A stretch of 64,000 bases of DNA from Nitrosopumilus sp. (GTDB lineage: Archaea > Thermoproteota > Nitrososphaeria > Nitrososphaerales > Nitrosopumilaceae): positions 1,728,001 through 1,792,000 of the forward strand of contig OZ252243.1 in assembly GCA_965249555.1 (NCBI GenBank), read 5' to 3'. Shown piece after piece: positions 1,399-63,447 of the stretch. The notes beneath the pieces are model-generated. The model saw only the letters and a program-made list of their open reading frames with translations. It was not told where the DNA came from and did no database searches. Each line of letters starts with the position of its first letter. The stretch's first letter is position 1. The translations under genes were made by a program, and so were the position numbers.

Positions 1399-2223
1399 TC
1401 ATTTATGTCTCATCTCCCATTTTTCCAGAAATTCATCTGGCGTGATGTATCCAAGTGCAGAGTGAATCCTGGAATCGTTGTAATCCTCAAATGCCTTGGC
1501 AATTCTTACTTGTGCTGATTGGAAATTTTCAAACTCGTGTGGCCAGAGATATTCCTTCTTTAACGTTTTATGAAACGATTCGACATGACCATTTTGTTGT
1601 GGTGTATGGTGCCAGATGAATTCCTGTCTTGCACCCAAAAGCAGGATTGCTTCTTTGAACTTTCGGCTTACATATTGCGAACCATTGTCAGTCCGTATAA
1701 TCAGTTTGGCACAATCCGGATTGGAAGTTGCAATTGCATGAATGATTGATTCTGTTGCAGCATCTTTGCTTGCAGTTACATCAAATGTGTATGAAATCCA
1801 TTTTCTGCTAAATGTATCTATGACATTAAAGCAGTAACACCAACTGTCAACCCCACACCAGACATATGTCATATCTGTCTGCCACAACTGGTTTGGCGCA
1901 GTCGGTTTGAAAAGTTTCTTTTTGGATGCCATGATGTCTTTTTTGGTCTTTGCAGGTGCAATCCAGCCTAGCTTGTGGAATATTCTGCGAATCTGCTTTC
2001 TGTTTACAGGCAATCCAAGCTCCCTTGCTGTGGCTGCAGCCATCCTACGGGTTCCATATGTTGGCCTGGCATTTCCAATCTTTTGGACCATTTGGGATAC
2101 GGTCTTGTTTAGTGGAATGTTTCGGGGTGATTTTGTATGGTACCATTTGTTGTGCGATATCCCAACGTATGATAATGATTTTCTCAGACTCAATTTTGCA
2201 GTGAGCTGCTTTGCAATGATCAT
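1399..2223 (-). CDS. IS3 transposase OrfB (DDE/rve integrase core)
   Basis: PNQLWQTDMTY, TDNGSQY, NGHVESFHKTLKKE, YNDSRIHSALGY. Confidence 0.95.
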   Translation of the reverse strand: MIIAKQLTAKLSLRKSLSYVGISHNKWYHTKSPRNIPLNKTVSQMVQKIGNARPTYGTRRMAAATARELGLPVNRKQIRRIFHKLGWIAPAKTKKDIMASKKKLFKPTAPNQLWQTDMTYVWCGVDSWCYCFNVIDTFSRKWISYTFDVTASKDAATESIIHAIATSNPDCAKLIIRTDNGSQYVSRKFKEAILLLGARQEFIWHHTPQQNGHVESFHKTLKKEYLWPHEFENFQSAQVRIAKAFEDYNDSRIHSALGYITPDEFLEKWEMRHK

Positions 2224-2510
2224 CTTTTGTGTCCCTCCAACGTTTTTTTAAAAGTGTCATTGACGATGGTCAGCTCACCTACGATTCTTTTTAGAGTCTC
2301 ATTTTCTTTTTGTAATGTCTTGCATGTATTGTCACCAGATCTGCTGTTTAATGCGGATTTGCCTCCATCCACAAACTTTTCTTTCCAAGAGTAGAATGTC
2401 TGCGGATGAATATTGTACTTTCTGCACAATTCTGCAGTTCCAATGTTGGTGTTTAATGATTCAAGGATTATCCTTGATTTTTCTGCAGGTGTGAATTTGT
2501 TCTTTACCAT
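2220..2510 (-). CDS. IS3 transposase OrfA (HTH)
   Basis: KFTPAEK...AELCRKYNIHPQTFYSWK helix-turn-helix plus coiled coil; ATGA overlap with orfB. Confidence 0.92.
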   Translation of the reverse strand: MVKNKFTPAEKSRIILESLNTNIGTAELCRKYNIHPQTFYSWKEKFVDGGKSALNSRSGDNTCKTLQKENETLKRIVGELTIVNDTFKKTLEGHKR

Positions 2511-2602
2511 GAGTGTGAATCTCCTAGATCTCCTGAAAAGTGTATGTATGCAGGCGTTCTCATTCTAGAGGGGACCAGACCAGGATAAGCAAAGACTTGT
2601 CC

Positions 2603-2638
2603 CTTGATAATGTCTGATTAACGATTTTCTAGTATCAT
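2603..2638 (+). repeat. 36-bp direct repeat, copy 2
   Basis: CTTGATAATGTCTGATTAACGATTTTCTAGTATCAT. Confidence 0.9.
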
Positions 2639-2672
2639 AGATACCCAAGTTTTAAGTAAGATATGCATAGAT

Positions 2673-15906: not shown

Positions 15907-16155
15907 ATGGATTATCCTGTCTCCGCAGATGAAAATGGTGTAAATTTAAAACCTGAGAAAATGGAAAAAGAAAAACTTTATCATTGTATATTCAAGAACA
16001 AGGCATTTTTGATTTTCAAAGATTCACAAGATGTCTTAAATTGTTATGAGATTGAACAAGAGGATTTAGTGGAACAAATTAGAAAATGTACTCATGATGA
16101 TGAACTTGAAAAATTATTTGAAGGCTATATCCAGGGACAAAATCTTAAAAATTAA
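15907..16155 (+). CDS. Hypothetical protein
   Basis: 82-aa ORF with an AT-rich TATA-like element just upstream. Confidence 0.65.
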
Positions 16156-16196
16156 ATAAAAGCGAGAGAAGATTTTGTTATAAAAGGAATTTAAAA

Positions 16197-17120
16197 TTGA
16201 GCGACTCTAACAGATCAAAAGATGCAGAAGATATTTTATCCGAATTTGATTCTCGTACTAAACCAGAATCTGAACCAACACCAGAATCTGAACCAACACC
16301 AGAACCTGAACCAACACCAGAACCTGAACCAACACCAGAACCTGAACCAACACCAGAACCTGAACCAACACCAGAACCTGAACCAACACCAGAACCTGAA
16401 CCAACACCAGAACCTGAACCAACACCAGAACCTGAACCAACACCAGAACCTGAACCAACACCAGAACCTGAACCAACACCAGAACCTGAACCAACACCAG
16501 AACCTGAACCAACACCAGAACCAACACCAGAACCTGAACCAACACCAGAACCTGAACCAACACCAGAACCTGAACCAACACCAGAACCTGAACCAACACC
16601 AGAACCTGAACCAACACCAGAACCAACACCAGAACCAACACCAGAACCAACACCTGAACCAACACCAGAACCTGAACCAACACCAGAACCAACACCTGAA
16701 CCAACACCAGAACCAACACCAGAACCAACACCAGAACCAGAACCAACACCAGAACCAGAACCAACACCAGAACCTGAACCAACACCAGAACCTGAACCAA
16801 CACCAGAACCAACTTCTAGTGAAACTTCTGATTCTCCTAGAAAATTAGAAGACCGTGATGTAATCTTTGTTGGTACAAAACCAATTATGACTTATGTTTC
16901 TGCAACCTTAACACAACTTTCAACAAGACAGACTGTGACTATCAAAGCTAGAGGAAAAAGAATTACACAAGCAGTAGATGTGTCTCAAATGATTGTTAAA
17001 AGAATGGATTTTGTGGGCTATGTTATTAGTGATGTAAGAATTTTGTCTGATTCTCTTACTTCTCAAGATGGAAAACAACGCAACGTATCTATAATAGAAA
17101 TTGACCTTTCAAAAAACTAG
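16197..17120 (+). CDS. Alba-family nucleic-acid-binding protein with long Pro/Glu/Thr N-terminal tract
   Basis: C-terminal [36 protein letters not shown] (Alba domain). Confidence 0.88.
16263..16813 (+). repeat. Coding tandem repeat: 18-bp CCAGAACCTGAACCAACA with 12-bp variants ([10 protein letters not shown])
   Basis: About 550 bp of near-perfect repeats visible directly. Confidence 0.97.
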
Positions 17121-43415: not shown

Positions 43416-44927
<1,512 letters not shown>

Positions 44928-44949
44928 TCAGGTTGAATAGGTAATTACA

Positions 44950-45234
44950 ATGAGTGAAAAACCAACTAAAATTGAATTTGAAATATTAGATTACAAACGA
45001 TTAGAAAATGATTTTGTATCTTTCAAATTAGAAGATGGAACCGTCGTTAAAGTTAAAGTTGATTTGGATCGAGTTGGCAAAGCTACCAACTACAAAAACC
45101 CTGATGGGACTCCTCACTATGCGATTAGTACTGCCATCAAGCTATCAATTGTACCCCCTGATAAAAAATTCTCAGTAGAAAAGAAATCAGTTAAAGGAAC
45201 AAATACTCAACCTCCTGGACAAATGTTTAGTTAA
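44950..45234 (+). CDS. Hypothetical protein
   Basis: 94-aa ORF; FKLEDGTVVKVK, NPDGTPHY. Confidence 0.7.
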   Translation: MSEKPTKIEFEILDYKRLENDFVSFKLEDGTVVKVKVDLDRVGKATNYKNPDGTPHYAISTAIKLSIVPPDKKFSVEKKSVKGTNTQPPGQMFS

Positions 45235-49670: not shown

Positions 49671-49772
49671 ATCCCAGAGAGTATACAACATGAATGCTGT
49701 TCCTCTCTGGTTTGTTGGCGTGCAAACCAATTACTGTTAAGAGAATTGTTTTAAGCCAATAAACCTTTACCA

Positions 49773-51025
49773 GTGTTGTCTGAGTTAACTGATAAAATCA
49801 CAATATCTGAATCAAATCTGTCAAATGCAACAAAGAAAGACGATGATTTCAGGTTAGGGCAATTCTATAGGATCTCTCCAGTCAAATCAGACGATGAGCT
49901 AATTGATTGTCCAACTGACGAATTCCAAAAAATTCTAGTATCTTACACTAGATACTTGTTAAAGCGTGTCAACAATGATGATTTATCAGCAAATACTGTT
50001 CCCAAGATGTTTCGAGGTATTAGATGGCTGTTAAACTCCAATTATCGTGAAAATGACATCAAATGGAAGGCCTATTGAGGCTTTATTTCCAAAGTCAGTA
50101 AAGCGTACAGGTTACAAAGCATGGACTACAGAGCAGGTAGCCATAATGCTGGAGCACACAGGTAACCTGCGAAATAGGGCATTGATTCGCTTTCTAGCAT
50201 CTACTGGTGCAAGAGTTGGTATCCATGATCATCCCTTATTGGTAAAGCACCTAACCATGATGGATTGGAATGGACATGGTTGCTATGCTGTATTACTATA
50301 TGCTGATTATGATGAAACAGTAGAAGAAAGAGATTTGAGAGATAAACAAGATGATGTACAAAGTGGTGATTCATATTGGTCTTTTCTAACACCTGAAGCC
50401 ACTGAATCCCTTGACAAGTATTTTACAGAACGCAAAAGAGCAGGTGAATTCTTTGATGATAACACTCCAATCTTTCTAAAGGACAAACAAAGAGTGTATC
50501 TTGATTCAAAGCAACTGTCTGATACCAATGTTACTTCTATTCTCTTTAGAATAATCAAAGGTATGCCAGAATTAGACAGAATAAAGAAAGGAAGAGGACA
50601 TGACATTCAGATTAATCATGATTTTAGAAAAAGAATGAATACTATACTAAAGCTAGAATCAAAGATTAATTCCAATGTTGCAGAAAAGATACTAGGACAC
50701 AAGAACGGATTGGATGATGTTTATTTGGCACCTACCAGACAAGAATGTTTTATAGAGTTCTGCAAAGGTATTACACAATTAACGATTTCTGATATACAAA
50801 GACAAAAGATAACAATCAAACAACTAGAAGATGATAAAACACAACTTGATCAACTCAAAGCAGAGATAAAAGAAAATACTTCAAAATCTATCAGAAAATG
50901 ATCATGATGTGATTATTAATTTAGTAAATGACATGCAAGGTCAATCAGATAGGCAAATAGAACTAATTGCGATGATTAATGATTTACGACAAGAAGTTTA
51001 CCAATTAAAGGAATTAGAACACTAG
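49773..51025 (+). pseudogene. Tyrosine recombinase/integrase, frameshifted
   Basis: Catalytic R (STGARVG), HxxR (HDFRKR), LGH and Y (DVYL). +1 shifts at about 50070 and 50876; the coiled-coil tail ends at TAG 51023-51025. Confidence 0.85.
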
Positions 51026-51086
51026 TTTAGATTATTTTTCTAATTTCTCTGCAAAAATCGAACTAAAAATATTATGTCATATTTGT

Positions 51087-51197
51087 GCCTAAATTTGGGT
51101 ATGAAATTGGGTATGATTGGGTATGATTGGGTAAATTTTAGGCGTAAATCATACCATACTTGCTCATTTCCTATACTCCTTTTGGGTATGGTATGAT
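51087..51197. repeat. TTGGGTATGA direct repeats with flanking inverted repeats (iteron-like)
   Basis: Copies at 51095, 51107 and 51117, partial at 51127 and 51182; 12-bp perfect IR ATCATACCATAC 51148-51159 / 51186-51197. Confidence 0.85.
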
Positions 51198-51547
51198 GAG
51201 TAAATTATAATTTTAGAAAATATTTTCTTATCATTAAAAACTTGTAAGACATGATCAATACCAATCTCACACATGTGACACATTTCAAATAAAACATTGT
51301 CTTAGACGCCAAAATACGTTTAACAAATTTTGACATGCTAACTGCAAGAGATTTGAACCAATCATGCAATTCCCTATGAGATATTTAGTGACTAAATCTC
51401 AACAGATTTACACACTAAATTTTGAAAATTTCTATGAAAAATGAATTATAAATTGTTGAGGAATATTTCTTAACATGCACTAATCATAATAATTTAGTCT
51501 CAAATTAGTGCAAAACTATATAAATATAAGCAGTATAATAATACTAA

Positions 51548-53184
51548 ATGGATATCACTTCTATAAATCTATTAAATTCATTGGTATAGCGAAGAGTCAA
51601 AGTTCGTGAACTAAAAATCATCAAAACAAAACACTTTTTGATCACCACACACAATGAAACACATGAACAAGTTAGAACAGCTTGAAGCAGCATACAAAAA
51701 GGAAAACTTCAAAGATATAGTCAGGATGCTTGCAGTACTAATGGTTCTCAAAGATGGCAAGGAATTAGAGTACACCGCACAAACACTGCACCGCTGTACA
51801 AACTGGGTACGCAAATGGGTTGATCGTTTTAACGTAGATGGCCTTGATGGCCTCTACGATCACCCAAGGAGTGAAAGACCATGTGTAATCCCAAAGAAGC
51901 AAATGAATTCTATTATGTTCAAAATTATGTTGACACTATTTACACCTGTAATGCTGCAGCAGACAATATTTGATTCTACTGGAATAAAATTTCACATAAC
52001 ACATGTCAGAAAAATAATGCGCCAGTATGGAATGTCTGCTAAAACTGCACAAAAATATCACGTTAATCATGCAAGTGTAACGGCTGTGCGCAGCTGGGCA
52101 GCAACGCATGAAAAAGAGAATTCCACGCCTAAAAAAGAGTGGATTCACCATTGCAATGCTTGATGAGGCATTCTTTGTTAGGGATGTAAAAGCAGGACGA
52201 AAATATTGGTCACCAGTTGCCAAAAGAATATTTCTCCCATATGTGGGAAACCATGAAAGTTTGGCAGTGTATGGAACAATTACAATCAATGGAGACCAAC
52301 TGTTTAGAATTTATAAAAAATTCAACGGTATAACATTTGTAGAATATCTAAAAGAGTTGCACTACAAATATGGTAAAATTGCGTTGATACTTGACAGGGC
52401 ATCAGTGCACAAATCAAAGAAGGTCAAGGACTTTTTGACAGATAATCCAGATGTTAAACTGATTTGGCTACCAAAAGGACCCACCATATCTAAACATGAT
52501 AGAGCAGTGTTGGAAAATAGGCAAGCATGTGTTGTTGGTATCAGAATATTATGCAATGTTTACAATAATGAATAATGCAGTGTCACAATACTTTGGAACA
52601 AAAAAATTCAAACTTGATGTTGTTAATTATATTTTTAGAAATCCTGCAAAGATGTTCACGAACTTTTGATCGTCGCTATATCACAAATTAAAAGAATTAA
52701 AATCAAAGATATTTTTGATCAAGAAAAATTTAACACTCTTGCTAAAAATCAAAAGTTTTTTTCACTATTAACAAATGTCAAAAATCTTTATTCTAGTCCT
52801 GAGTTTAACAAAGCATCCCCAAGAGTTATTGTAACGATTACTAAAAAAATTAGGATGATTGTAAAGAAATCTTTGAAAGAACATGAAAAATATAATCTTA
52901 AAGAAACTGATCTTGAAAAATTAATGTCAATTTCTAAAATTTTGTTAGATTGTTTGAATTACATCAATCAACTTAGTGAAAAGAAGATGACAGATACAAT
53001 ACAATTTGAAGTTGAAAATGAAATTGAAATTATGGAATTAATATTAAAACAATATCCTGAAACGACTTCTATGATAAAGGGATATGAATTCAATCCAAAC
53101 GATTATTTCAAGATTATATACGAAAATGCCTTGCATTCAGCTTATTCTATGTCTCTATTTGTTCTAGGTCGTAAATGGTGGTAA
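51548..53184 (+). pseudogene. Hypothetical 180-aa gene interrupted by IS630
   Basis: MDITSINLLNSLV (51548-51586) joins in frame to SQIKRIKIKD (52681-) after removing the IS and one TA; TATA-like TATATAAA about 25 nt upstream. Confidence 0.75.
51587..52678 (+). mobile_element. IS630-family insertion sequence (about 1.09 kb), transposase frameshifted
   Basis: IRs TAGCGAAGAGTCAAAGTTCGTGAAC / TAGCGACGATCAAAAGTTCGTGAAC with TA duplication; HTH (WVRKWVDRF..GLDGL), LDEA, ILDRA..H, and PYLNMIEQCW in a shifted frame. Confidence 0.9.
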
Positions 53185-53268
53185 TTAATAATAAAATTGA
53201 AAAAAGAAATACTTGATCAGTTTAATTTTTGAAAGATGGCTAGAAAAATGAACCATCAATTGCAGAAT

Positions 53269-53463
53269 TTATTGCTTGGATTTATTCAAATTACGTAAAA
53301 AATTTAGTAATTCAAAAAGTGTTGCTCTTCCATTATGATCAACATTGTCAAAATCATTTAAAAAATCATATGCATATTTATCGTCATAATTCCATATAGC
53401 ACTTAATCCCAATCTAAAATCGTATATATTTAACAATTGATTTGTTGATGATTCTATTGTCAT
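53269..53463 (-). CDS. Small hypothetical protein
   Basis: 64-aa ATG ORF divergent from the first glycosylase. Confidence 0.4.
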   Translation of the reverse strand: MTIESSTNQLLNIYDFRLGLSAIWNYDDKYAYDFLNDFDNVDHNGRATLFELLNFLRNLNKSKQ

Positions 53464-53503
53464 TCATTTAAACATATAAGACATTTTTTTCCAGTAAAAG
53501 AAA

Positions 53504-54031
53504 ATGGTTGAGAAACTTAAACCTCTACGTGATATTATTAAAAAAAATTTAAGAATATTATTTGTTGGAACTCGACCCGGAATTCGTTCATCGAAAACGG
53601 GCCATTATTTCCCAGGAAATTCTAATATGTTTTGGAAATTATTGTATCAATCAAAATTAACTGGAGAAATGCTTTCACATAAACAGGACTCAAAATTAAT
53701 TGAGTATAATTATGGTCTTACAGATATAGTGAAAAAACCAAAAATAAGTAACACGATTAATTTTACAGATACTCTTGATAGCACTAATAGATTAAATAGA
53801 TTATTAATCAAATTTCAACCCAAAATAGTATCTTTTGTTGGAAAAAGAGGATATCAGATTTACACTCAAAGACTAACTCAAAAATATGAATATGGATATA
53901 AAGGAAAATATTACAAAACCAGAATATGTCTTATCCCATCATCTAGTGGACAAAGTTATGCAGATACATCATATGATGAGAAATTACATTGGTATAAATC
54001 ACTTAAACGATATCTTGAAACTTTTTCTTAA
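53504..54031 (+). CDS. MUG/TDG-family (UDG family 2) DNA glycosylase, variant active site
   Basis: ILFVGTRPG (canonical GxNPG), GHYF...NMFWKLL, YGLTDIV, FVGK, IPSSSG. Confidence 0.85.
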   Translation: MVEKLKPLRDIIKKNLRILFVGTRPGIRSSKTGHYFPGNSNMFWKLLYQSKLTGEMLSHKQDSKLIEYNYGLTDIVKKPKISNTINFTDTLDSTNRLNRLLIKFQPKIVSFVGKRGYQIYTQRLTQKYEYGYKGKYYKTRICLIPSSSGQSYADTSYDEKLHWYKSLKRYLETFS

Positions 54032-55028
54032 ATAGATTCAAGTTTAACACAGCTAATCTTTTATAATTTTCATCCAATAACTGTAAAGCTTTTTCTTCAT
54101 TTGTAGAATCTTTCACTTTGAATGCACCATAGCATAACAAAAGATATCCAAATTGTTTCCAATAAGGATCTATAAGGAAATTTTCTACCATAATAAATAA
54201 AGAATCAAAATCAAAACCCACATTATGATCTATTTTTGCAACTACTTTAGTACGGACAATAGATTCAAACTTGTTCATATCACGTAATTTGAAGTGTAAT
54301 TTGGAATGTGGCATGGGTGGCATTTGAAAAGATGATGTTTTCGTATTAGACACAATTTTTTTAGCAACATCTAAATCTGTTTCATAAACGTGAAAACTAC
54401 CGCTAAAATGATTATATTTCCCAAGTTCAAATTGGTCATATTTTGGTTTTAATCTGTTTTGAACATATTCCTGTAACATTGTAAAAATAAACAAGTCATA
54501 CGGAAGTACCTTAAGAGCATCTTGACTCCTCATATAGATGACAGATTGTACTTGATTTTGACGAATAAGATATTGTAAGTTCAAGGTACATGGAATTTCT
54601 TCATGAGGAAGACCATGTTGATCAAATTGAGGTAAATACACTGATGCCACAGCTCTGCGTTTTGATGGATCCTCATCCAAAACACGCAATATATGTTCCA
54701 TTTGATTAAGGTGTTGAATCCCAAAAAGCCTAGGTCCATATGCCCCAATCACTTTTATTCCATCTGAGGAATAATCTTTTGCCCTGGGAACATAATATTC
54801 AATTGCTTCTAAATTAAAATTACCTTGAGTTATCCATAAAAAATGTCCTATGCATTGAAAAATATTCAAAGGACAAGTTTCATCAAACAAAAGTCTATCG
54901 CGAGGATTTCGTAATTCAAATTTGTAGGAGACTAATTCTTTGATATTACGTTTAACATCTTTTCTTGTTACATTTTCACCATGGATGATTATGTCTGATA
55001 ACACATCTCTCCATTGTTTGTCCCACAA
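54003..55028 (-). CDS. Thymidylate-synthase-superfamily protein, dCMP/CMP hydroxymethylase-like
   Basis: GAYGPRL, SKRRAV, IPCT (catalytic Cys), MRSQD...LPYD, GSFHVY; GGTGA Shine-Dalgarno 6 nt before the TTG start. Confidence 0.85.
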   Translation of the reverse strand: MWDKQWRDVLSDIIIHGENVTRKDVKRNIKELVSYKFELRNPRDRLLFDETCPLNIFQCIGHFLWITQGNFNLEAIEYYVPRAKDYSSDGIKVIGAYGPRLFGIQHLNQMEHILRVLDEDPSKRRAVASVYLPQFDQHGLPHEEIPCTLNLQYLIRQNQVQSVIYMRSQDALKVLPYDLFIFTMLQEYVQNRLKPKYDQFELGKYNHFSGSFHVYETDLDVAKKIVSNTKTSSFQMPPMPHSKLHFKLRDMNKFESIVRTKVVAKIDHNVGFDFDSLFIMVENFLIDPYWKQFGYLLLCYGAFKVKDSTNEEKALQLLDENYKRLAVLNLNLFKKKFQDIV

Positions 55029-55067
55029 ATATCATCACCAAATATCTAAATAATCATGAAATTATGA

Positions 55068-55571
55068 CTATTGGATTAGATTTAGTTTTACCAAGTCAAT
55101 TAGTATTTTGCGAACTAAAGATTCACTAAAATTTTTATATCCATAAGAGAGGTCTTGAAATAGATACCCTACAATTTCATCAAATTCTCTATCATGATAA
55201 TGTTCTTTTCGTATATAATATAATGATGCAGCAATTTCTAACCACTCTGTATCGTGTTTATATGGTTCTATTTTTTTTGCAAAATTAGCAATTTTTTCTT
55301 TGTTTAATCCTGTTTGTTCAGATGTAGATTCAACTTGCTGATCAATAATGCTATGGGCATCTTGAGAAACTTGTTTACAATATGGACCTCTAAGATACCA
55401 ATCAAATTCATAACCCAAATCAATACCAGATTCTTGTGCCAAGTAAGCAATTTTTTGAACTTTAAGCTTGTCATCAAATTCAGTCATTGAGATTTGTTTA
55501 TCAATTCCAGAGAAAAGCACTGCCAGTTTTTCCATATTTTCAGCCATTATTTCTGCCATAACCAAATTCAC
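55068..55571 (-). CDS. YwgA / SocA-Panacea-like protein
   Basis: KVQKIAYLAQ...YEFDWYLRGPY...LEIAASLYY. Confidence 0.65.
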   Translation of the reverse strand: MNLVMAEIMAENMEKLAVLFSGIDKQISMTEFDDKLKVQKIAYLAQESGIDLGYEFDWYLRGPYCKQVSQDAHSIIDQQVESTSEQTGLNKEKIANFAKKIEPYKHDTEWLEIAASLYYIRKEHYHDREFDEIVGYLFQDLSYGYKNFSESLVRKILIDLVKLNLIQ

Positions 55572-56006
55572 TTAATTAAAGATTCGGTTGGACTAAGATT
55601 CATTATCTGATCGATTTTTGACAAAATTTTTACTTTTAGATCATCAAATGATACGTAATTAATGATGGAAATTCCTGGCATTCCCAATTACTATTTTGGA
55701 TAGTTTTCTTTCAGAATGGATACAAAATATTATTTTCCCTAAAGTATACGCATACATAATCTCAATACCTACACCAATACTAGGATTAGATACATCTGCG
55801 ATCATAATGTCACATGTTGAGATGGCATCAATATCTCTTCGATAGATTTCTTTAGAATCTAAATTAGGGTTAGGATCTTGCCATATGACCCATTTGGAAA
55901 CAATATCTAGATCTATTTCTTTTAACATCCCAACAAGTTTTTTAGCATATTCGATATCTCTATTGTGTATCAAAGGAGTTGATAAGTAAATTTTCACATT
56001 TTTCAT
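55568..56006 (-). CDS. Nucleoside 2-deoxyribosyltransferase-family nucleotide N-hydrolase (DNPH1/Rcl/MilB-like); apparent +1 frameshift near the C-terminus
   Basis: KIYLS, IYRRD...CDIMIA, PSIGVGIE, LSKIVIG. Removing one G at about 55684 extends the ORF (MPGISIINYVSFDDL...) to a TGA overlapping the next GTG start. Confidence 0.8.
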
Positions 56007-56118
56007 AAGAATTCATGAAATAAAAATTTACAAAATTTTGTTAATAACTTCCAACAAGATTGGATGCAAAATTAAACTTGCAGTACGTATATTTTGTAGA
56101 AGAATCAAATAAATTATT

Positions 56119-56661
56119 GTGAGAACGTTACCAGATCATGTTTTTCCAAACATGGATGTCCTATTTGTTGGGACAAATCCAGGTATTAAATCTGCAAGAA
56201 TAGGTCACTATTTTGCAGGAACAAGTAATATGTTTTGGAGACTTTTGTATGAATCAAAATTAACTGAAGAAAGATTGAGAACCGAATTTGATTTCAAAAT
56301 TACAAATTACGGTTACGGATTAACTGACGTAGTAAAACGTCCCACAAGATCTACATCAGAATTAAGAAAAGATGATGGAAGAGGTTCAAGAAAAAGACTT
56401 GATGGTATTGTTGAAGAAAACTCGCCAAAAGTGGTTGCTTTTGTTGGAAAAGCAGGTTTTAGATATTATCTAGGCGATAATACAATAGAACTTCAATATG
56501 GTAAACAAAATTTAGAAATAAACAAATCCAATGTGTATTTACTTCCATCCACTAGTGGTCAGAGTTTTGCAGACACAAAATATCATGAAAAGCTTCATTG
56601 GTATAGAACGTTAAAACGATACGTAAATAGATTTTTGAATTATTCTCAAATAACATCCTAA
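56119..56661 (+). CDS. MUG/TDG-family mismatch-specific DNA glycosylase
   Basis: VLFVGTNPG, GHYFAG.SNMFW, YGLTDVVKRPT, FVGK, LPSTSG. Confidence 0.9.
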   Translation: MRTLPDHVFPNMDVLFVGTNPGIKSARIGHYFAGTSNMFWRLLYESKLTEERLRTEFDFKITNYGYGLTDVVKRPTRSTSELRKDDGRGSRKRLDGIVEENSPKVVAFVGKAGFRYYLGDNTIELQYGKQNLEINKSNVYLLPSTSGQSFADTKYHEKLHWYRTLKRYVNRFLNYSQITS

Positions 56662-56751
56662 ATTTGTCCATAAGGAGATCTCATCTATTGGTCAATTTCC
56701 TTTAATAATAGATACCTATAGTTAATATGAAATAATAATTGGTGATTGTCA

Positions 56752-56904
56752 ATGTCTGAAATTGTTGAACAAACAAAAATCATAACTGATGAAGAAGCAC
56801 AAAAAGTAAAAGAAAATTTTGCAAAACAAACTGATATAATCAAAGGAGATTGCTTTGAAGGATTACTGGATAACATTGACAAAACTAGAAATAAGCCAAA
56901 ATGA
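56752..56904 (+). CDS. 50-aa ORF or gene remnant
   Basis: GGTGA SD then ATG; MSEIVEQ...DIIKGDCFEGLLDNI. Confidence 0.35.
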   Translation: MSEIVEQTKIITDEEAQKVKENFAKQTDIIKGDCFEGLLDNIDKTRNKPK

Positions 56905-57123
56905 TGATAGATGCCTTTTTGACTTAGATTATTGGTTTAAAGAATTAATTAATTTCGTTGTTAAAAAGTTCAAACTTTCAAAGAATATCATAGATTCAAA
57001 ACTTGATGAAAGACGGGGATTGTGTTTGTTGAAGAGCAACCATTCAATTTTTTCTTATAAAATTTCTATTAAAGACTAAATACTAAATCCCTCTCAATGA
57101 TATGGGTATGGAAGTGTTTGTGA

Positions 57124-57969
57124 ATGGAAATAATTGACAATTCTATAGTGGAACCTATTGAAATTCGAATGATTAGGCAATCTAAATTTCCAGTCAGATA
57201 TAAACTTCCCACAACTTCTCCCGAACTTGCAAATTTGAAATCTAGCATAAAAGAGCATGGATTACTACAACCTATTGTAATTAGGCCCATTGATCATGGA
57301 TTTGAGATAGTTGCAGGACATCGAAGATTCACCGCATGTAGATCACTGCATTGGAGATTCATCCCAAGTAAAATCAGGGATTTGTCTGATAAACAAGCAT
57401 ATGAAATTCAACTAACAGAGAACATTCAAAGAAAATCTATGGCACCTATAGAAGAAGCTGAAGCATATCAAAAATATGTTAATGAATTTGGTTGGGGTGG
57501 AGTAAGTGACCTTAGCCGAAAAATTGGAAAAAGTGAAGAGTATGTGTCTCATAGAATGCAGCTCTTAAAACTTTCAGATGATGTTAAAGAAAAGATAGTT
57601 CACAATGATTTGAGCGTAAGTCAGGCATTAGAACTAACTACTGTTGGCGCTTCACTGAAAAGTGAATTTGTAGATGAAATAGTAGACAACAAACTGACAG
57701 TAAAACAAATTAGAGTAATGAAAAAGAATGCTAAATCTGATCTATACAAACCAGTACCTAACAAAAATTCCAAGTCACTTAATTTGATAAAGAAAAGTAG
57801 TCTGGCACTAAAAATTACTCTCTCAAGAATTGATGACCTTATAGAAGACGCACATGGAATTCAACCAAAACAAAGAGTAGAATTGATAAAATTTTTGATG
57901 AGCCTCAGAATAAAGACTCATTCAATGATAGATGAAACTATCAAATTCAAAAAAGATTATTTAAAATAA
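57124..57969 (+). CDS. ParB/Spo0J-like protein
   Basis: SIKEHGLLQPIVIR, IVAGHRRF, ENIQRKSM.PIEEA, HTH. Confidence 0.9.
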   Translation: MEIIDNSIVEPIEIRMIRQSKFPVRYKLPTTSPELANLKSSIKEHGLLQPIVIRPIDHGFEIVAGHRRFTACRSLHWRFIPSKIRDLSDKQAYEIQLTENIQRKSMAPIEEAEAYQKYVNEFGWGGVSDLSRKIGKSEEYVSHRMQLLKLSDDVKEKIVHNDLSVSQALELTTVGASLKSEFVDEIVDNKLTVKQIRVMKKNAKSDLYKPVPNKNSKSLNLIKKSSLALKITLSRIDDLIEDAHGIQPKQRVELIKFLMSLRIKTHSMIDETIKFKKDYLK

Positions 57970-57979
57970 TTTCTTTATC

Positions 57980-58519
57980 TTACAAACCAATAAATGGCGG
58001 TGTCCATTCTTTGAGAAATTTCTTGTATTCCTCTTCAGTATATGTCAGTGCATAAATTGATGCTTCTGTCTGTGGAACAAAGTCATAGATCTCATATACC
58101 TGAATAATATCTCCAAACAGATTTCGATAAATATCGTTTTCCTCATCTGCCATTTCATTTGACAAAAATGACTTGACTGTAATCCAATCGTATCTTCCTC
58201 GTGTTCTACCTGAAAACAAAACAAATGGTGCATCATTGAGATATTTTTTCAACCCATCTAGTCGTTTGGGAAGTGCTTGTGATGTTCTAAATGTAACAAG
58301 GTCTACACGTATGACTCTGTGTGGAATTTTCTTTGCATCTACAGTAATTGTATATCCTTTGATAATACCTTCTTCTTCAAGTTTTGATATTCTGGACTCT
58401 ATTTCTTCTTCTGTTAAATTGTAATTAAATCCCTTCAAAAAATCCCAAATCTCAAATACTTGTTGTTTTGAGTTTTGAGAAAGTGCTGAAATTATTAGCT
58501 CATCCACCTTGTCAATCAA
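57980..58519 (-). CDS. Lrp/AsnC-family transcriptional regulator
   Basis: IDKVDELII..L, RISKLEEEGIIKGYT, GRYD. Confidence 0.82.
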   Translation of the reverse strand: MIDKVDELIISALSQNSKQQVFEIWDFLKGFNYNLTEEEIESRISKLEEEGIIKGYTITVDAKKIPHRVIRVDLVTFRTSQALPKRLDGLKKYLNDAPFVLFSGRTRGRYDWITVKSFLSNEMADEENDIYRNLFGDIIQVYEIYDFVPQTEASIYALTYTEEEYKKFLKEWTPPFIGL

Positions 58520-58635: not shown

Positions 58636-60945
58636 GTGAGTGCTGTTCTATCTGAAAATGTAGGCTATATCGTATTAATTGGAGTTGGATTGATTATGGC
58701 ATTATCAGTCACGCTAATGGTAAAGGCTGAAACAAAATGGCTTGGTACTAGAAAAACATCTGAATGGTTCTATACTGCAGGTCGTACCATCAAAACTGGA
58801 TTAATTGCATCATCTATTGTTTCTGCATGGACATGGGCTGCAACTCTTTTACAATCCTCTACTGTTACCTATGCGTTTGGATTAGGTGGTTCTTTTTGGT
58901 ATGCTGCAGGAGCATGTATTCAGGTAATCTTATTCGCAATTCTTGCAATTGAACTAAAAAGAAAGGCACCAATGACTCACACTTTTCCTGAAATGATCTA
59001 TGTTAGATTTGGAAAACATTCTCACAAAGTTTTCTTATTTTTTGCACTGATGACAAATACCATTGTAACTGCTATGCTTGTGCTAGGTGGAGCGGCAGTA
59101 ATCAATTCTCTTACTGGAGTAGATATTACACTAGCTACATTTCTAATCCCTGTTGGAATAGTTCTTTACACAATTTTTGGTGGTCTAAAGGCAACATTTT
59201 TTGCAGAATATCTTAATGCTGCTTTGATTTTTGTAGTGGTGCTAATCTTTGTAACTGTCATTTATTTTGCCACTCCTGAAATTGGTGGAATCTCTGGTAT
59301 GTATGAAAAATTAACTCAAGCATCCATTCTGAATCCTGTTGAAGGAAATGCATTTGGGACATATTTGACACTAGCGTCTGTGGGTGCTCTAATATTTGGC
59401 ATCATCAATATTGTGGGAAACTTTGGAACAGTATTTGTAGATCAATCTTATTGGCAGAGAGCAATTGCTTCAAGACCAAAGGCTGCAACTGGAGGATTTA
59501 TCTTGGGAGGTTTGGCTTGGTTTGCAATTCCATTCACTCTTGCTACTACACTTGGGTTGGCAGCAATATCTACTGGAGTAACTTTAACAGAAAACGAGAT
59601 TGGATTAGGATTGGTAGCCCCTACTGCAGCATCAAATCTGATGGGTGATTTTGGTGCTATTCTTCTTCTCACAATCATCTTTACAGCAGTGACTGCTGCT
59701 GGATCATCACAACTAGTCAGCGTTTCATCTCTTATTACTTATGATGTATTTCGCACGTATCTAAAACCCTCCTCGACAGGTCGTGAACTGATAAGAATTT
59801 CCAGATTTAGCATTCTTGGATTTGGAATAGGAATGGGATTGTTAGCATCGTTATTGTTTCATTCTGGATTTAGTTTACAGTATGTTTATCTTATGATGGG
59901 AGTTCTGATAGGTTCTGCAGTAGCTCCAATCTCCTTTGCTATTTTATGGAAAAAGACTAACAAGTACGCTGCAACTTCTGCAGCCATTATAGGACTTGTA
60001 TGTGGTGTTTTGTCATGGCTTTGGTCTGCTAATTCAATGTATGGTGAAATAACTCTTTCTTCAACAGGAAATCTTATTCCACTTTTGATTGGAAATGTTG
60101 TTTCAATTACCGTGAGCTTGGGAATTACACTTGTTGGTAGTATGATAAAACCTGCAAACTTTAATTTTGATATCATGAAACAAAAAATCCTTGTTGTAGA
60201 TGACAAGGTTCGCTCTATGTTAGAACGTGATACTGATGAAGAATTCCTTCTACGCTCTCTGAAATTCTGTAAAAGAGCTGGATTTTCAATCTCTGTCTTT
60301 CTTGTAATTGTGTGGCCTGCATCTTTTTACCTAACTGAATTTATCTTTGATGAACAATCATTTCATCTTTGGATTTGGCTTGCAATAGTTTGGGCATTTG
60401 GAGCAGCAGGAATCATAATCTTTTTGCCACTAATTGAGGCAAGAAAAAGTATCAGTGAAATTTTCCACAAAGCAACAATAGATTCTGACATGGTGGAACA
60501 TTCTGATTATTCTCTTTCTTCTAGAGATGATCCTCCTGTGATGAAAATTTTGGTGCCAGTAGATGGTTCTGCAAAATCATTAAAGGCACTTTACCATGCA
60601 AACTATCTTTTCAGAGGTGCTGCCAAAGTAAGGATCTACTTGTTACATGTAATAGAGTGGACTGATGAAAATGAAGAAAATATAGATGAAGAATTATCTG
60701 CCCAGATTCAAGAAGAAGGCAGATTGATTCTTCGAAGTGTTGTTCTGCCAAGACAGATCAATGACTACAAACGCATTGTCAAATTGGGAGATCCTTCTGA
60801 AAAAATTGTAGAACTTGCAGACAAACTCAAAATTGATATGATAATTATGGGCAAAAATGGTATAGGAAAATCCACTTCAGACTTGGGTCATGTTACACAA
60901 AAAGTACTCAAACTTACCTCAAAACCAGTGGTTCTTTTAGAATAG
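58636..60945 (+). CDS. DUR3-like urea active transporter (SSS family) fused to a C-terminal universal stress protein domain
   Basis: SAWTWAATLLQS, NFGTVFVDQSYWQRAIA; tail KILVPVDGS...GDP...IIMG...LGHVTQKVL...PVVL. Confidence 0.88.
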   Translation: MSAVLSENVGYIVLIGVGLIMALSVTLMVKAETKWLGTRKTSEWFYTAGRTIKTGLIASSIVSAWTWAATLLQSSTVTYAFGLGGSFWYAAGACIQVILFAILAIELKRKAPMTHTFPEMIYVRFGKHSHKVFLFFALMTNTIVTAMLVLGGAAVINSLTGVDITLATFLIPVGIVLYTIFGGLKATFFAEYLNAALIFVVVLIFVTVIYFATPEIGGISGMYEKLTQASILNPVEGNAFGTYLTLASVGALIFGIINIVGNFGTVFVDQSYWQRAIASRPKAATGGFILGGLAWFAIPFTLATTLGLAAISTGVTLTENEIGLGLVAPTAASNLMGDFGAILLLTIIFTAVTAAGSSQLVSVSSLITYDVFRTYLKPSSTGRELIRISRFSILGFGIGMGLLASLLFHSGFSLQYVYLMMGVLIGSAVAPISFAILWKKTNKYAATSAAIIGLVCGVLSWLWSANSMYGEITLSSTGNLIPLLIGNVVSITVSLGITLVGSMIKPANFNFDIMKQKILVVDDKVRSMLERDTDEEFLLRSLKFCKRAGFSISVFLVIVWPASFYLTEFIFDEQSFHLWIWLAIVWAFGAAGIIIFLPLIEARKSISEIFHKATIDSDMVEHSDYSLSSRDDPPVMKILVPVDGSAKSLKALYHANYLFRGAAKVRIYLLHVIEWTDENEENIDEELSAQIQEEGRLILRSVVLPRQINDYKRIVKLGDPSEKIVELADKLKIDMIIMGKNGIGKSTSDLGHVTQKVLKLTSKPVVLLE

Positions 60946-61443: not shown

Positions 61444-63447
61444 GTGGACAAGGCAAAATCACTCCCCTTCATTTTAACCATATTTTTTGTTTCCGTTGTA
61501 GCTTTTGCCGGAACCCAACAAACTGTTTTTGCAGCCGGTGCCGTTTCTGAAGGATTTGCAATAGGTGAAGCATTACCTGAATGGATTGGTTGGGCAATTG
61601 TTGTTGGTCTGGGTATGGTTTTTGCCGTAATTATTACAATTGAGGTAAAAATTGAAGAAAAATATCTTGGTCTTAGCCAGACCTCCGAGATGTTTAACAC
61701 CGCAGGTCGTACCATCAAAACGGGTCTTACTGCGGCTGCAATTGTTTCTGCTTGGACTTGGGCTGCGACATTGCTTCAATCCTCAACAGTAGCATACCAG
61801 TATGGAATTAGTGGTCCATTTTGGTATGCCGCAGGAGCATCAATTCAAGTTTTATTGTTTGGAATTTTAGCTATTGAATTAAAACGTAAAGCACCAAATG
61901 CACATACTTTCCTAGAAATAATTCGTGCAAGATATGGTAATGGTTCTCACAAAGTCTTCTTAATATTTGCATTAATGACTAACATGATTGTAACTGCCAT
62001 GCTTCTGCTTGGTGGTTCTGCAGTTGTCAACGGCTTGACTGGAATGGATATTTCCTTAGCTGCCTTTTTGATTCCTATCGGCGTGATGATTTACACCCTA
62101 GTTGGAGGATTAAAGGCAACTTTTGTTGCAGACTATATGCATACTATAATCATATTTATTACAATATTGACATTTGTTGCAGCCGTATACCTCAACACTG
62201 ACATTACTGGTGGTATTGAAGGAATGTACGACAAGCTAGTTGAAGCTGCAAAGTTGACTCCGGTTGAAGGAAATGCTGCAGGTGCATTCCTAACTATGGC
62301 ATCCATTGGTGGCTTGATGTTTGGTATCATCAACATTGTGGGAAACTTTGGTACTGTTTTTGTTGACCAAGCATATTGGCAGAGAGCCATAGCTGCCAAG
62401 CCATCATCTACTGTCAAAGGTTTCTTGCTTGGTGGTGCATGTTGGTTTGCAATTCCATTTACACTTGCTACTACGATGGGGCTGACGGCGGTGGCGCTTG
62501 ATGTAGACTTGACAGCTCAACAGGTTCAAATGGGATTGGTAGTTCCAGCTGCTGCAACTGCACTAATGGGTGAAATAGGAGCTATTATGGTACTTACAAT
62601 GTTATTCATGGCAGTTACTTCTGCAGGATCTGCAGAACTAATTGCAGTCTCATCGATAATCACTTATGATATTTACCGAACGTACAAGAATCCAAACGCC
62701 ACAGGCAAGCAGCTGGTCAAAGTATCCAGAGCGTCAATTGTGGGCTTTGGGATTGGCATGGGTGGTCTAGCTATCGTGCTATTACACATGGGATTGAGTC
62801 TTGGCTTTGTCTATCTAGCAATGGGCATTATTATTGGTGCAGCAGTAATTCCAATTGCACTGACGATACTTTGGAAGAGAACCAACAAAGTTGCCGCTAC
62901 CGCAGGTACCGTGATTGGATTTATTATTGCAGTAACTACTTGGGTAACTGTAGCCGCATCATTACCAGAATTTGGCGGTGAAATTACTCTTGCAAGTCTT
63001 GGTCACAACTACTCTATGCTGTTTGCAAACATTGCAGGAATCGTATCTGGTGGTTTAATCGCAATAATTGGAAGTCTTGCTACAAAGAGTACCTTTGATT
63101 GGAAGGATCTCAAAGACAAAATTACCCTAGTCGAAGTAAGTGCAGCAGAATCTGCTAAAATTACAGAAGATGAGGAGACTCTAAAAAAGGCATTCAAGTT
63201 TAGTGTTAGAGGTGGTGGACTCATGACATTTATACTAATTATTGCATGGCCAATGCCATTGATCGCAGCAAACTATGTCTTTGATATAATGTCTTATAGT
63301 ATTTGGGTTGGAATCTCTATACTTTGGGTGAGTATTGCAGCTGCCATCATTATATTCTTGCCAATCATTGAGGCAAAGAAAGGTATTGCTCAAGTGTTTG
63401 GTGGTAAAAAATCTACTTCGGAACAATTAGGGGAAGATGAGAAATGA
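61444..63447 (+). CDS. dur3: DUR3-like urea active transporter (SSS family)
   Basis: SEMFNTAGR, SAWTWAATLLQS, GPFWYAAGA, NFGTVFVDQAYWQRAIA, YDIYRTY.NP.ATG. Confidence 0.9.
   Translation: MDKAKSLPFILTIFFVSVVAFAGTQQTVFAAGAVSEGFAIGEALPEWIGWAIVVGLGMVFAVIITIEVKIEEKYLGLSQTSEMFNTAGRTIKTGLTAAAIVSAWTWAATLLQSSTVAYQYGISGPFWYAAGASIQVLLFGILAIELKRKAPNAHTFLEIIRARYGNGSHKVFLIFALMTNMIVTAMLLLGGSAVVNGLTGMDISLAAFLIPIGVMIYTLVGGLKATFVADYMHTIIIFITILTFVAAVYLNTDITGGIEGMYDKLVEAAKLTPVEGNAAGAFLTMASIGGLMFGIINIVGNFGTVFVDQAYWQRAIAAKPSSTVKGFLLGGACWFAIPFTLATTMGLTAVALDVDLTAQQVQMGLVVPAAATALMGEIGAIMVLTMLFMAVTSAGSAELIAVSSIITYDIYRTYKNPNATGKQLVKVSRASIVGFGIGMGGLAIVLLHMGLSLGFVYLAMGIIIGAAVIPIALTILWKRTNKVAATAGTVIGFIIAVTTWVTVAASLPEFGGEITLASLGHNYSMLFANIAGIVSGGLIAIIGSLATKSTFDWKDLKDKITLVEVSAAESAKITEDEETLKKAFKFSVRGGGLMTFILIIAWPMPLIAANYVFDIMSYSIWVGISILWVSIAAAIIIFLPIIEAKKGIAQVFGGKKSTSEQLGEDEK

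Follow-up and report, generated by a model that had tools for sequence, protein, structure and literature searches.

Why should an island in the chromosome of a Nitrosopumilus archaeon carry the gene of a thymidylate synthase (TS)-fold enzyme that overlaps, tail to tail, the gene of a DNA glycosylase? The question was raised by a five-gene cassette read within a window of 64,000 nucleotides (nt), the whole stretch of DNA that was analysed, taken from contig OZ252243.1 (positions 1,728,001 to 1,792,000, forward strand) of the complete 2.23 Mb genome of Nitrosopumilus sp. Here we showed that the invariant core of the cassette is a MilA-like TS-fold enzyme gene placed tail-to-tail with a TDG/MUG glycosylase gene, a pair found in three archaeal phyla, and that the Nitrosopumilaceae versions add a YwgA-like gene just upstream of the TS gene and often also a nucleoside deoxyribosyltransferase (NDT)-like gene and a second MUG. 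Since the arrangement recurs in every retrieved archaeal locus with room for it, the cassette is an autonomous, recurrent and horizontally mobile unit and not a chance neighbourhood, and the parts of this two-to-five-gene unit are functionally linked.

A preliminary description of the locus had reported five genes on an integrase island, and both the genes and the setting were found. The glycosylase gene MUG-A (53504-54031, plus strand) encodes 175 amino acids (aa) and matched UDG PF03167 (E 2.1e-14) and, below its cut-off, the NCBIfam mug model NF007570 (6.2e-23). It shares a 29-nt tail-to-tail overlap with the TS-like gene (54003-55028, minus strand; 341 aa; PF00303, E 1.7e-14), whose product is MilA-like with a C-terminal helical extension. 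The YwgA-like gene follows on the minus strand (55068-55571; 167 aa; no Pfam hit; DarG NF048014, 2.5e-6) with 39 nt between its stop and the TS start; a start at an ATG a few codons downstream is also possible. Next on the same strand is the frameshifted NDT-like gene (55572-56006; PF05014, E 7e-13), in which 55659-56006 is an open frame of 115 aa and the terminal TGA of the continued frame overlaps the GTG start of the YwgA-like gene. The three minus-strand genes are thus tightly packed, and MUG-B (56119-56661, plus strand; 180 aa; UDG, E 4.1e-17) is divergent from their operon.

Relatives of the TS-like protein were collected in a scan of one genome per species, in which 524 of 544 matched stretches were confirmed as TS-like and 80 were kept, and in a scan of metagenome contigs, which gave 102 relatives with 80 kept. 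All nine archaeal loci among the kept genome relatives had a MUG beside the TS gene; seven were from Nitrosopumilaceae, one from a Thermoplasmatota metagenome-assembled genome (MAG) and one from a Halobacteriales MAG, and the YwgA-like gene was present in 7/7 of the Nitrosopumilaceae loci. The complete five-gene order was found in one genome locus (L023). Among the kept metagenome relatives 30 loci were MUG-linked (L142-L171), and five of them (L142, L144, L149, L153, L154) had the full order MUG-B(-) NDT(+) YwgA(+) TS(+) MUG-A(-), with contig-cut versions of it in L148, L151, L155 and L158. Four MUG-linked metagenome loci were without the NDT-like gene, and twelve distant ones (34-41% identity) consisted of the TS gene and a convergent MUG alone. 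The TS/MUG tail-to-tail distance had a median of -11 nt in 33 loci, and the gap between the YwgA-like and TS genes a median of 44 nt in 19 loci. An extra open reading frame (ORF) of ~1.1 kb was seen between the NDT-like and YwgA-like genes in two loci (L153:2560-3819 and L154:3691-4822). L177 is a short contig holding the TS gene alone. The conserved gene order that the preliminary description had looked to for support therefore exists in the same genome, in other genomes and in metagenome contigs.

The distribution is sporadic: the cassette was carried by 7/401 Nitrosopumilaceae genomes, in 3/27 genera. A second, diverged cassette lies in the same genome (G000:C1:833268-835303; L003:9263-11316) and encodes a YwgA-like protein of 158 aa, a TS-like protein of 334 aa (53% identical to that of the window) and a convergent MUG of 178 aa, without the NDT-like gene and without an upstream MUG. 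An intact insertion sequence (IS) transposase gene was seen ~2.7 kb from this copy. In genome G323 the cassette comprises a broken MUG-A, TS, YwgA and MUG-B, again without the NDT-like gene. Beside it are an ORF with a TIR-like N-terminus, assigned by eye, and a 487-aa ATPase-like ORF (L022:5430-6017, 2103-3566). A ~97%-identical cassette, with flanks unlike the window on both sides, was present in contigs of two runs (X4 and X5) that belong to a different study and a different organism. The similarity begins at 53456 and ends at 56644 of the window, which is exactly the five genes, and since the sequence beyond is unlike, the cassette moves as a unit. Among 137 neighbouring ORFs no further family was conserved; the commonest were thioredoxin-like proteins (4), integrases (3), DDE transposases (3+2) and DNA methyltransferases, and the PADLOC candidates were PDC-S18 (3) and PDC-S19 (2).

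What the TS-fold enzyme may do was approached through its relatives and its active site. In a profile search the best solved relative was MilA, the CMP 5-hydroxymethylase (PDB 5b6d, E 7.1e-65, profile positions 4-305); 5b6d and 5jnh both stood at ~7e-65 and the match spanned the extra C-terminal helical domain, with ordinary thymidylate synthases at ~1e-17 to 1e-23 and T4 dCMP hydroxymethylase at 4.2e-13. The TS fold and the sequence family were indicated alike by PF00303, the PDB and PHROG (thymidylate synthase, 6.6e-42), the protein staying below every NCBIfam equivalog cut-off. The host genome encodes ThyX, so the TS-like gene is not needed for dTMP and is no housekeeping thymidylate synthase. 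This ThyX gene (G000:C1:1816663-1818006; L140, L141) is a single open frame of 546 aa that matches Thy1 twice and so may encode a tandem-domain protein.

Cys147, Arg124/125, Arg167, His213 and Tyr215 were shared by 109 or more of 114 family sequences, and the window protein retains Cys147, Arg124/125, Arg167-Ser168, Asp178, Glu144, His213 and Tyr215. According to the passages of PMC5175136 (Zhao et al. 2016) on substrate choice, ribose-preferring enzymes carry Lys133 and Ala176, deoxyribose enzymes Arg and Ser, and cytosine enzymes Asp186. In the window protein Asp178 stands at the Asn177 position, Arg124 and Ser168 at the Lys133/Ala176 positions and Glu144 at the Leu143 position, and the first three residues mark it as of the deoxycytidine monophosphate (dCMP) type. 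The sections of PMC13326640 on sequence signatures link an acidic residue at the Leu143 position with non-methyl products, and N177D and L143E with dCMP use and a non-methyl product.

The MUG-linked TS sequences formed one clade (36 leaves, support 0.93) in a FastTree of 173 non-identical family members, and the bacterial sequences linked to aGPT-Pplase3 formed another (126 leaves, support 1.0). The catalytic Glu (E. coli Glu58, MilA Glu68), called extremely conserved in the part of PMC5175136 that deals with it, was kept in 135/136 leaves outside the MUG-linked clade; at this position the window protein has His62. The equivalent of Gly173 was Val, Ile or Leu in 35/35 sequences of the MUG-linked clade (Val in the window) and Gly in 133/137 others. 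Position 169 was Asp in 24 and Asn in 10 sequences of the clade and covaried with Val/Ile versus Leu at 173, and at the Cys168 position Asn is replaced by Gln in the clade. Gly173 and Asp169 lie near C5 and the cofactor and have roles in cofactor binding. The active-site signature of the window copy is H/D/V and that of the second copy in the genome Q/N/L.

The text of PMC13326640 on the active site counts Cys168, Asp169 and Gly173 among 12 residues within 6 Å of C5 of dUMP, and gives D169N as the mark of flavin-dependent TS homologues making 5-hydroxy-dCMP. This signature was found in 10/35 clade sequences, the second copy included; the window copy has Asp170 at the Asp169 position. As the catalytic Glu is lost and C5-proximal residues are changed throughout the clade, the C5/cofactor pocket has been rebuilt in MUG-linked enzymes, and 5-hydroxymethyl-dCMP cannot be taken for granted as the product. 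The idea in the preliminary description of a 5-hydroxymethyl-dCMP writer was weakened accordingly: none of the 35 readable MUG-linked leaves has the Glu, and the changed residues lie within 6 Å of C5.

The constant partner of this enzyme is a family-2 UDG (MUG/TDG). A profile of 17 MUG proteins matched human TDG (1.9e-33) and E. coli MUG (6.7e-32), and the NCBIfam mug matches stayed below the equivalog cut-offs. MUG-A and MUG-B are 48% identical. Motif 1 of MUG-B is an intact GTNPG; that of MUG-A is GTRPG, with an Arg, unique among the copies examined, at the position of the Asn in G-x-N-P-G, which we take from the MUG/TDG literature to be catalytic. The upstream MUG had Asn (GTNPG) in 16/16 loci, and so did the convergent MUG in all single-MUG loci. 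In two-MUG loci the convergent copy had Ser (17), Gly (1), Met (L161) or Arg (window), and L153 was the sole such locus with Asn still in this copy. At least one Asn-bearing MUG is thus always kept, and the TS-proximal copy has altered its catalytic motif after duplication. The idea that MUG-A inserts a free base, working as a DNA transglycosylase, was considered and set aside, because most loci are without an N-glycosidase to make that base.

The YwgA-like protein gave weak PADLOC matches to DarG (1e-6) and PDC-M19A (1.5e-3), and the NF048014 match covered model positions 169-249, that is, the C-terminal half of DarG. Its close relatives fell into 37 clusters, of which JGI names one 'uncharacterized protein YwgA', and a profile retrieved 1,789 representatives at E <= 1e-3, of which ten were tested against Pfam and none contained a Pfam family. 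A profile of 50 diverse members matched PDB 7yk3_B with E 5.6e-7 over profile positions 28-151, nearly the whole length. The description of 7yk3 in PMC13621843 is of a M. tuberculosis DarG fragment whose C-terminal helical domain binds and inhibits DarT, and a reference cited there describes this inhibition as single-stranded DNA mimicry. The 167-aa protein itself is no DarG: the C-terminal domain alone is matched, with no macrodomain and no DarT nearby, and SocA_Panacea gave no Pfam match at E <= 1. Judged from these profiles, the YwgA-like family and the DarT-inhibiting C-terminal domain of DarG are homologous.

This multi-copy family occurs sporadically in the phylum (40/401 genomes, up to 5 copies). 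Four copies were seen in this genome, two of them at G000:C1:171716-172090 and 418372-418692; the former, the third paralogue, has no informative neighbour of at least 90 aa. Genes directly downstream of YwgA-like genes (n=24; L224-L251) encoded HD proteins with HD_assoc_2 (3), PIN proteins (2) and a BsuBI/PstI endonuclease (1), and 15/24 had no Pfam match. Such diverse partners are the behaviour of what would be a promiscuous antitoxin or inhibitor domain. In the cassette its target could be the TS-like enzyme encoded just downstream, or, given the DNA mimicry of DarG, it could be a glycosylase.

For the NDT-like protein the nearest solved match was DNPH1 (3.9e-6), followed by the CMP N-glycosidase 4jen (1.4e-4), with nucleoside deoxyribosyltransferases at 0.4-0.6. 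The reading frame is broken by a 1-nt frameshift near 55683-55688: in tblastn with the intact 133-aa homologue of L023, residues 1-105 fell in one frame and 105-131 in another, so that the frame of this DNPH1/MilB-class N-glycosidase breaks at about residue 105 of 133. Contigs of run X2, which may be the sample from which the window was assembled, equal the window base for base over 53682-56370, frameshift included, and the X4/X5 contigs are without one base at 55688 and keep all frames. The frameshift is therefore real here and absent from the copy of a close relative. An operon with both the NDT-like and the TS-like gene was seen in the window, in L023 and in 9 metagenome loci, at least 11 loci in all. 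The preliminary description had made the N-glycosidase an integral part of the system, which is hard to maintain, as the gene is absent from the second copy and all TS+MUG-only loci and broken in the window. The NDT-like gene is accessory and, in the window, inactivated by the frameshift.

A related module was found in bacteria. In 63 of 71 bacterial genome loci a Glu-type TS-like gene was followed by an aGPT-Pplase3/ADDT gene (PF18746, 2.1e-105), with a conserved 267-aa protein of no known family between them in 38/63. This protein showed no similarity to MUG by hhalign (probability 0.2), and its profile matched nothing in the PDB below E 0.05. Beside the module are a divergent XRE-ImmA gene (PADLOC PD-Lambda-2_B, 3.7e-28) and a 110-aa gene; its TS, aGPT3 and c4 proteins had no PADLOC matches. 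It was also present in 16/32 IMG/VR viral-contig loci, none of which had MUG or YwgA. In the bacterial, viral and metagenome loci L031-L102, L108-L126 and L172-L221 it was often preceded by DUF4031, and no kinase was seen. The bacterial module resembles the cassette in that its TS-like enzymes form the sister clade of the same family and in that the enzyme is coupled to a DNA-base-directed protein on mobile DNA; it differs in keeping Glu58, Asp169 and Gly173, in having aGPT-Pplase3 and not MUG as partner, and in having no YwgA-like or NDT-like gene. The DefensePredictor study (PMC13092281) validated a bacterial defence system with a TS domain and lists a system type with aGPT-Pplase and UDG domains as a predicted, unvalidated defence.

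The cassette was then set against known systems. MilA/BcmA with MilB/BcmB (mildiomycin, bacimethrin) supply its closest solved match, and share the Asp at the cytosine-determining position and, at some loci, a DNPH1/MilB-class N-glycosidase in the operon. However, Lys133/Ala176 of MilA are Arg/Ser in the window TS and Glu68 is His or Gln in the MUG-linked clade, the constant partner is a DNA glycosylase and not the N-glycosidase, and there is no antibiotic gene cluster. T4 gp42 and the flavin-dependent 5-hydroxy-dCMP synthases (RB69 gp48, DLP3 gp80, RL38J1 gp216) share the TS fold, N177D and L143E; D169N of the latter occurs in the 10/35 clade sequences but is Asp169 in the window copy. Unlike these phage enzymes, the clade is without Glu58 and has Val, Ile or Leu for Gly173, and the cassette has no linked dNMP kinase, dCTPase or glycosyltransferase and sits on cellular islands, not in virus genomes. 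Brig1 is likewise a UDG-superfamily glycosylase on mobile/defence loci, proposed in the account given by PMC11078745 to excise modified cytosine-derived bases from invader DNA; it acts alone, whereas the cassette MUGs are obligately paired with a nucleotide enzyme, and that account gives its best structural match as a Sulfolobus uracil DNA glycosylase, not family 2. With DarTG/Panacea (DUF4065) the cassette shares the YwgA-like homologue of the DarG C-terminal domain, which precedes diverse enzymes as promiscuous antitoxins do, but it has no macrodomain, no DarT and no SocA_Panacea match. Mammalian DNPH1 and SMUG1 are functionally paired in handling 5-hydroxymethyl-dUMP and 5-hydroxymethyluracil (5-hmU). 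That pair also joins a nucleotide N-hydrolase to a UDG-superfamily glycosylase for a 5-substituted pyrimidine, and DNPH1 is the best NDT-like match; it belongs to another domain of life, uses another glycosylase family and has no TS-like partner.

No description of the TS-MUG unit was found in the literature searched, although supplements, for example of PMC13092281 and PMC6563490, could still list the gene set, and the main text of a thaumarchaeal mobilome survey contained neither 'glycosylase' nor 'thymidylate'. The cassette thus has a distinct TS clade and a gene set not described in the searchable literature, in keeping with the preliminary description, which knew of no described system with these genes in archaea. 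The comparison with PADLOC that it had proposed gave no significant model match, apart from the weak DarG/PDC-M19A matches of the YwgA-like protein. Its family assignments also held: the TS has Asp at the Asn177 position, the NDT-like protein is nearer DNPH1 and the CMP N-glycosidase, and both glycosylases belong to family 2. The earlier interpretation therefore stands as to families, gene order and novelty, and falls short as to a 5-hydroxymethyl-dCMP writer and an N-glycosidase in the core.

The cassette lies in a variable island of ~7 kb (~49,770-57,040), whose ends were set where the genus-conserved flanks stop in a DNA comparison with 60 Nitrosopumilus genomes. The left flank stops at ~49,770, after the arginyl-tRNA synthetase gene, and the right one resumes at ~57,040 with ParB-like, Lrp-like and transporter genes. 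Besides the cassette the island (49770..57040) holds two unknown ORFs, an integrase-like ORF at 50047-50901 (Pfam 9e-4, below the cut-off; PHROG integrase 4.7e-8) and a broken IS630-like element at ~51585-52680, the transposase of which is split into ORFs of 169 and 155 aa. At least three more copies of this element, 96% identical, are in the genome, and another copy encodes an intact 320-aa transposase. A direct-repeat search around the island for an attachment site gave short AT-rich matches alone, none convincing, and no tRNA gene is in the window. Directly outside the island are a ParB-like gene (57124-57969; ParB_N 1.2e-20) and an ORF (57980-58519), which are conserved alongside the transporter genes elsewhere in the genus and so are not part of the mobile element. 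Further on, 58636-60945 and 61444-63447 encode a pair of large, paralogous membrane proteins of 769 and 667 aa, solute-symporter-like, with ~68% DNA identity over ~1 kb and a long C-terminal extension in the first. Elsewhere in the window, 16001-17000 has a GC fraction of 0.41 and an AT skew of 0.45, and 44001-45000 a GC fraction of 0.45, against a background GC of ~0.33.

What, then, is the cassette for? We tentatively prefer a conflict (defence-type) module coupling C5 chemistry of dCMP with base excision from DNA, a reading that we place somewhat below an even chance and ahead of each of its rivals. It is favoured by the sporadic distribution on mobile DNA, the presence of two diverged copies in one genome, the DarG-C-terminal-domain-like inhibitor and the precedents for TS-domain and UDG-family defence. 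In such a module the TS-fold enzyme would attack dCMP via the conserved Cys with an altered, probably non-folate, cofactor chemistry. Its product is uncertain, perhaps a 5-oxygenated dCMP: 5-hydroxymethyl in the Asp169-type window copy and possibly 5-hydroxy-dCMP in the Asn169-type second copy. The Asn-bearing MUG would excise from DNA either the modified base or, opposite G, the product of its deamination; an intact NDT-like enzyme, in cassettes that have one, would hydrolyse the modified mononucleotide; and the YwgA-like protein would inhibit or adapt one cassette enzyme, as the C-terminal domain of DarG does DarT. A glycosylase-based restriction-modification system directed against unmodified C was also considered and set aside, because its establishment would be lethal and single-MUG loci keep the ordinary Asn motif.

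Several observations weigh against the conflict module. The catalytic Glu is replaced in the MUG-linked clade by Gln (19), His (15) or Trp (1), with one gap (0/35 readable with Glu), and a protein without it could be slow or catalytically inactive. No nucleotide kinase, dNTPase or polymerase was linked among the 137 neighbouring ORFs, which leaves the entry of modified dCMP into DNA unexplained and weakens the suggestion of the preliminary description that it enters invader DNA. Nor are family-2 enzymes known to excise 5-hydroxymethylcytosine, a further point against that description. The minimal TS+MUG loci show no obvious regulator or sensor, the MUG-type context was found in 0/32 of the IMG/VR viral-contig relatives, and the neighbour-family counts are raw, without control loci for defence-island enrichment. 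PADLOC-DB 2.0 models gave no match for the TS-like, NDT-like, MUG-A and MUG-B proteins, and those for the YwgA-like protein were weak. In the window copy the NDT frameshift together with the Arg in MUG-A may indicate decay.

The main rival, which we consider possible but rather doubtful, is cytosine modification of self-DNA, of the host or the element, with a dedicated deamination-repair partner. The TS product would be a C5-modified dCMP put into DNA by host kinases and polymerase, and the family-2 glycosylase would repair the G-mispaired deamination product (T, 5-hmU or 5-hydroxyuracil). Modification and repair are paired in the same manner in dcm-vsr and in the methyltransferase-linked Mig.Mth glycosylase. 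The obligate overlapping TS-MUG pair in 33 loci is readily understood in this way, as are the mismatch specificity opposite G of family-2 enzymes, taken from the family names, the constant retention of an Asn-bearing MUG and the C5 DNA methyltransferases in some cassette neighbourhoods. All known pyrimidine hypermodification pathways, moreover, start from a TS homologue, as put in the relevant passages of PMC13326640 and PMC8989533. Against such self-modification are the lack of a linked kinase, the phage enzymes having been expressed with cognate dNMP kinases for in vivo assay according to the part of PMC13326640 on that assay, and the absence of the catalytic Glu throughout the clade. A second, diverged copy in the genome would be redundant, and the 7/401 distribution and the DarG-like inhibitor domain fit a conflict system better. 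We know of no cellular genome with global nucleotide-level replacement of cytosine.

Bolder versions of these two readings are unlikely in our judgement: an antiviral system of prodrug type, or a nucleotide-derived non-canonical cytosine in an archaeal chromosome with built-in deamination repair. In the prodrug version the TS-fold enzyme would make a C5-oxygenated dCMP that the host cannot phosphorylate, and a virus-encoded broad dNMP kinase alone would carry it into replicating viral DNA. The paired MUGs would then excise the modified base or its deaminated form and so destroy the viral genome, with the N-glycosidase clearing the pool and the DarG-like protein restraining the enzymes before infection.

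Less likely still is a MilA/MilB-like pathway acting on the nucleotide pool alone, in which dCMP would be modified and then cleaved to the free modified base, giving a secreted antimetabolite or dCMP depletion, with the MUGs protecting the DNA of the producer. The lack of a linked kinase would be expected of it, and it draws on the closeness of the TS-like protein to MilA, on the NDT-like matches to DNPH1 and 4jen and on the shared operon in at least 11 loci. However, the N-glycosidase is absent from the second copy, G323 and all 12 distant TS+MUG loci and broken in the window, the ribose determinants of MilA are replaced, no conserved tailoring, export or kinase gene was found among the 137 neighbouring ORFs, and the invariant partner is a DNA enzyme. 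About equally improbable is an accessory repair or sanitation module with no conflict role, which would clear oxidised, hydroxymethylated or deaminated pyrimidines from pool and DNA and in which the TS-fold protein would undo a C5 adduct, by dehydroxymethylation for instance, or trap it. The DNPH1-like protein, the MUG/TDG enzymes and a TS fold that has the Cys but not the folate-handling Glu can all be read as acting on 5-substituted pyrimidines, and ammonia oxidisers face nitrosative stress. Sanitation is hard to reconcile with presence in only 7/401 family genomes, on mobile islands, with the pairing to a DarG-like protein whose relatives precede PIN and HD genes and with two diverged copies in one genome, and there is no precedent for the reverse reaction in the TS fold. 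That the window copy is a decaying remnant without current function is very improbable, for although the NDT frameshift is reproduced in run X2, the Arg of MUG-A is unique and an IS fragment and a weak integrase adjoin the cassette, four of the five ORFs are intact, many loci can do without the NDT-like gene, and the ~97%-identical copy in the other organism keeps all frames, the variants shown being mostly transitions.

Cytosine-nucleotide-modifying TS-fold enzymes are known from phages and antibiotic pathways, and an immunity role of the UDG superfamily was shown recently; here the two are joined in one archaeal mobile unit. Loss of the catalytic Glu, which the other characterised TS-family members compared have kept, points to a new C5 chemistry or a sensor-like role in the MUG-linked proteins. 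The cassette thus offers an entry into how cofactor switching has evolved in the TS superfamily, into the use of DarG-C-terminal-domain-like inhibitor domains outside DarTG, and into virus-host conflict in archaea, especially in thaumarchaea, a field with very few tested defence systems. Should the product enter DNA, this would be the first case of a cytosine modification made at the nucleotide level and encoded by cellular islands.

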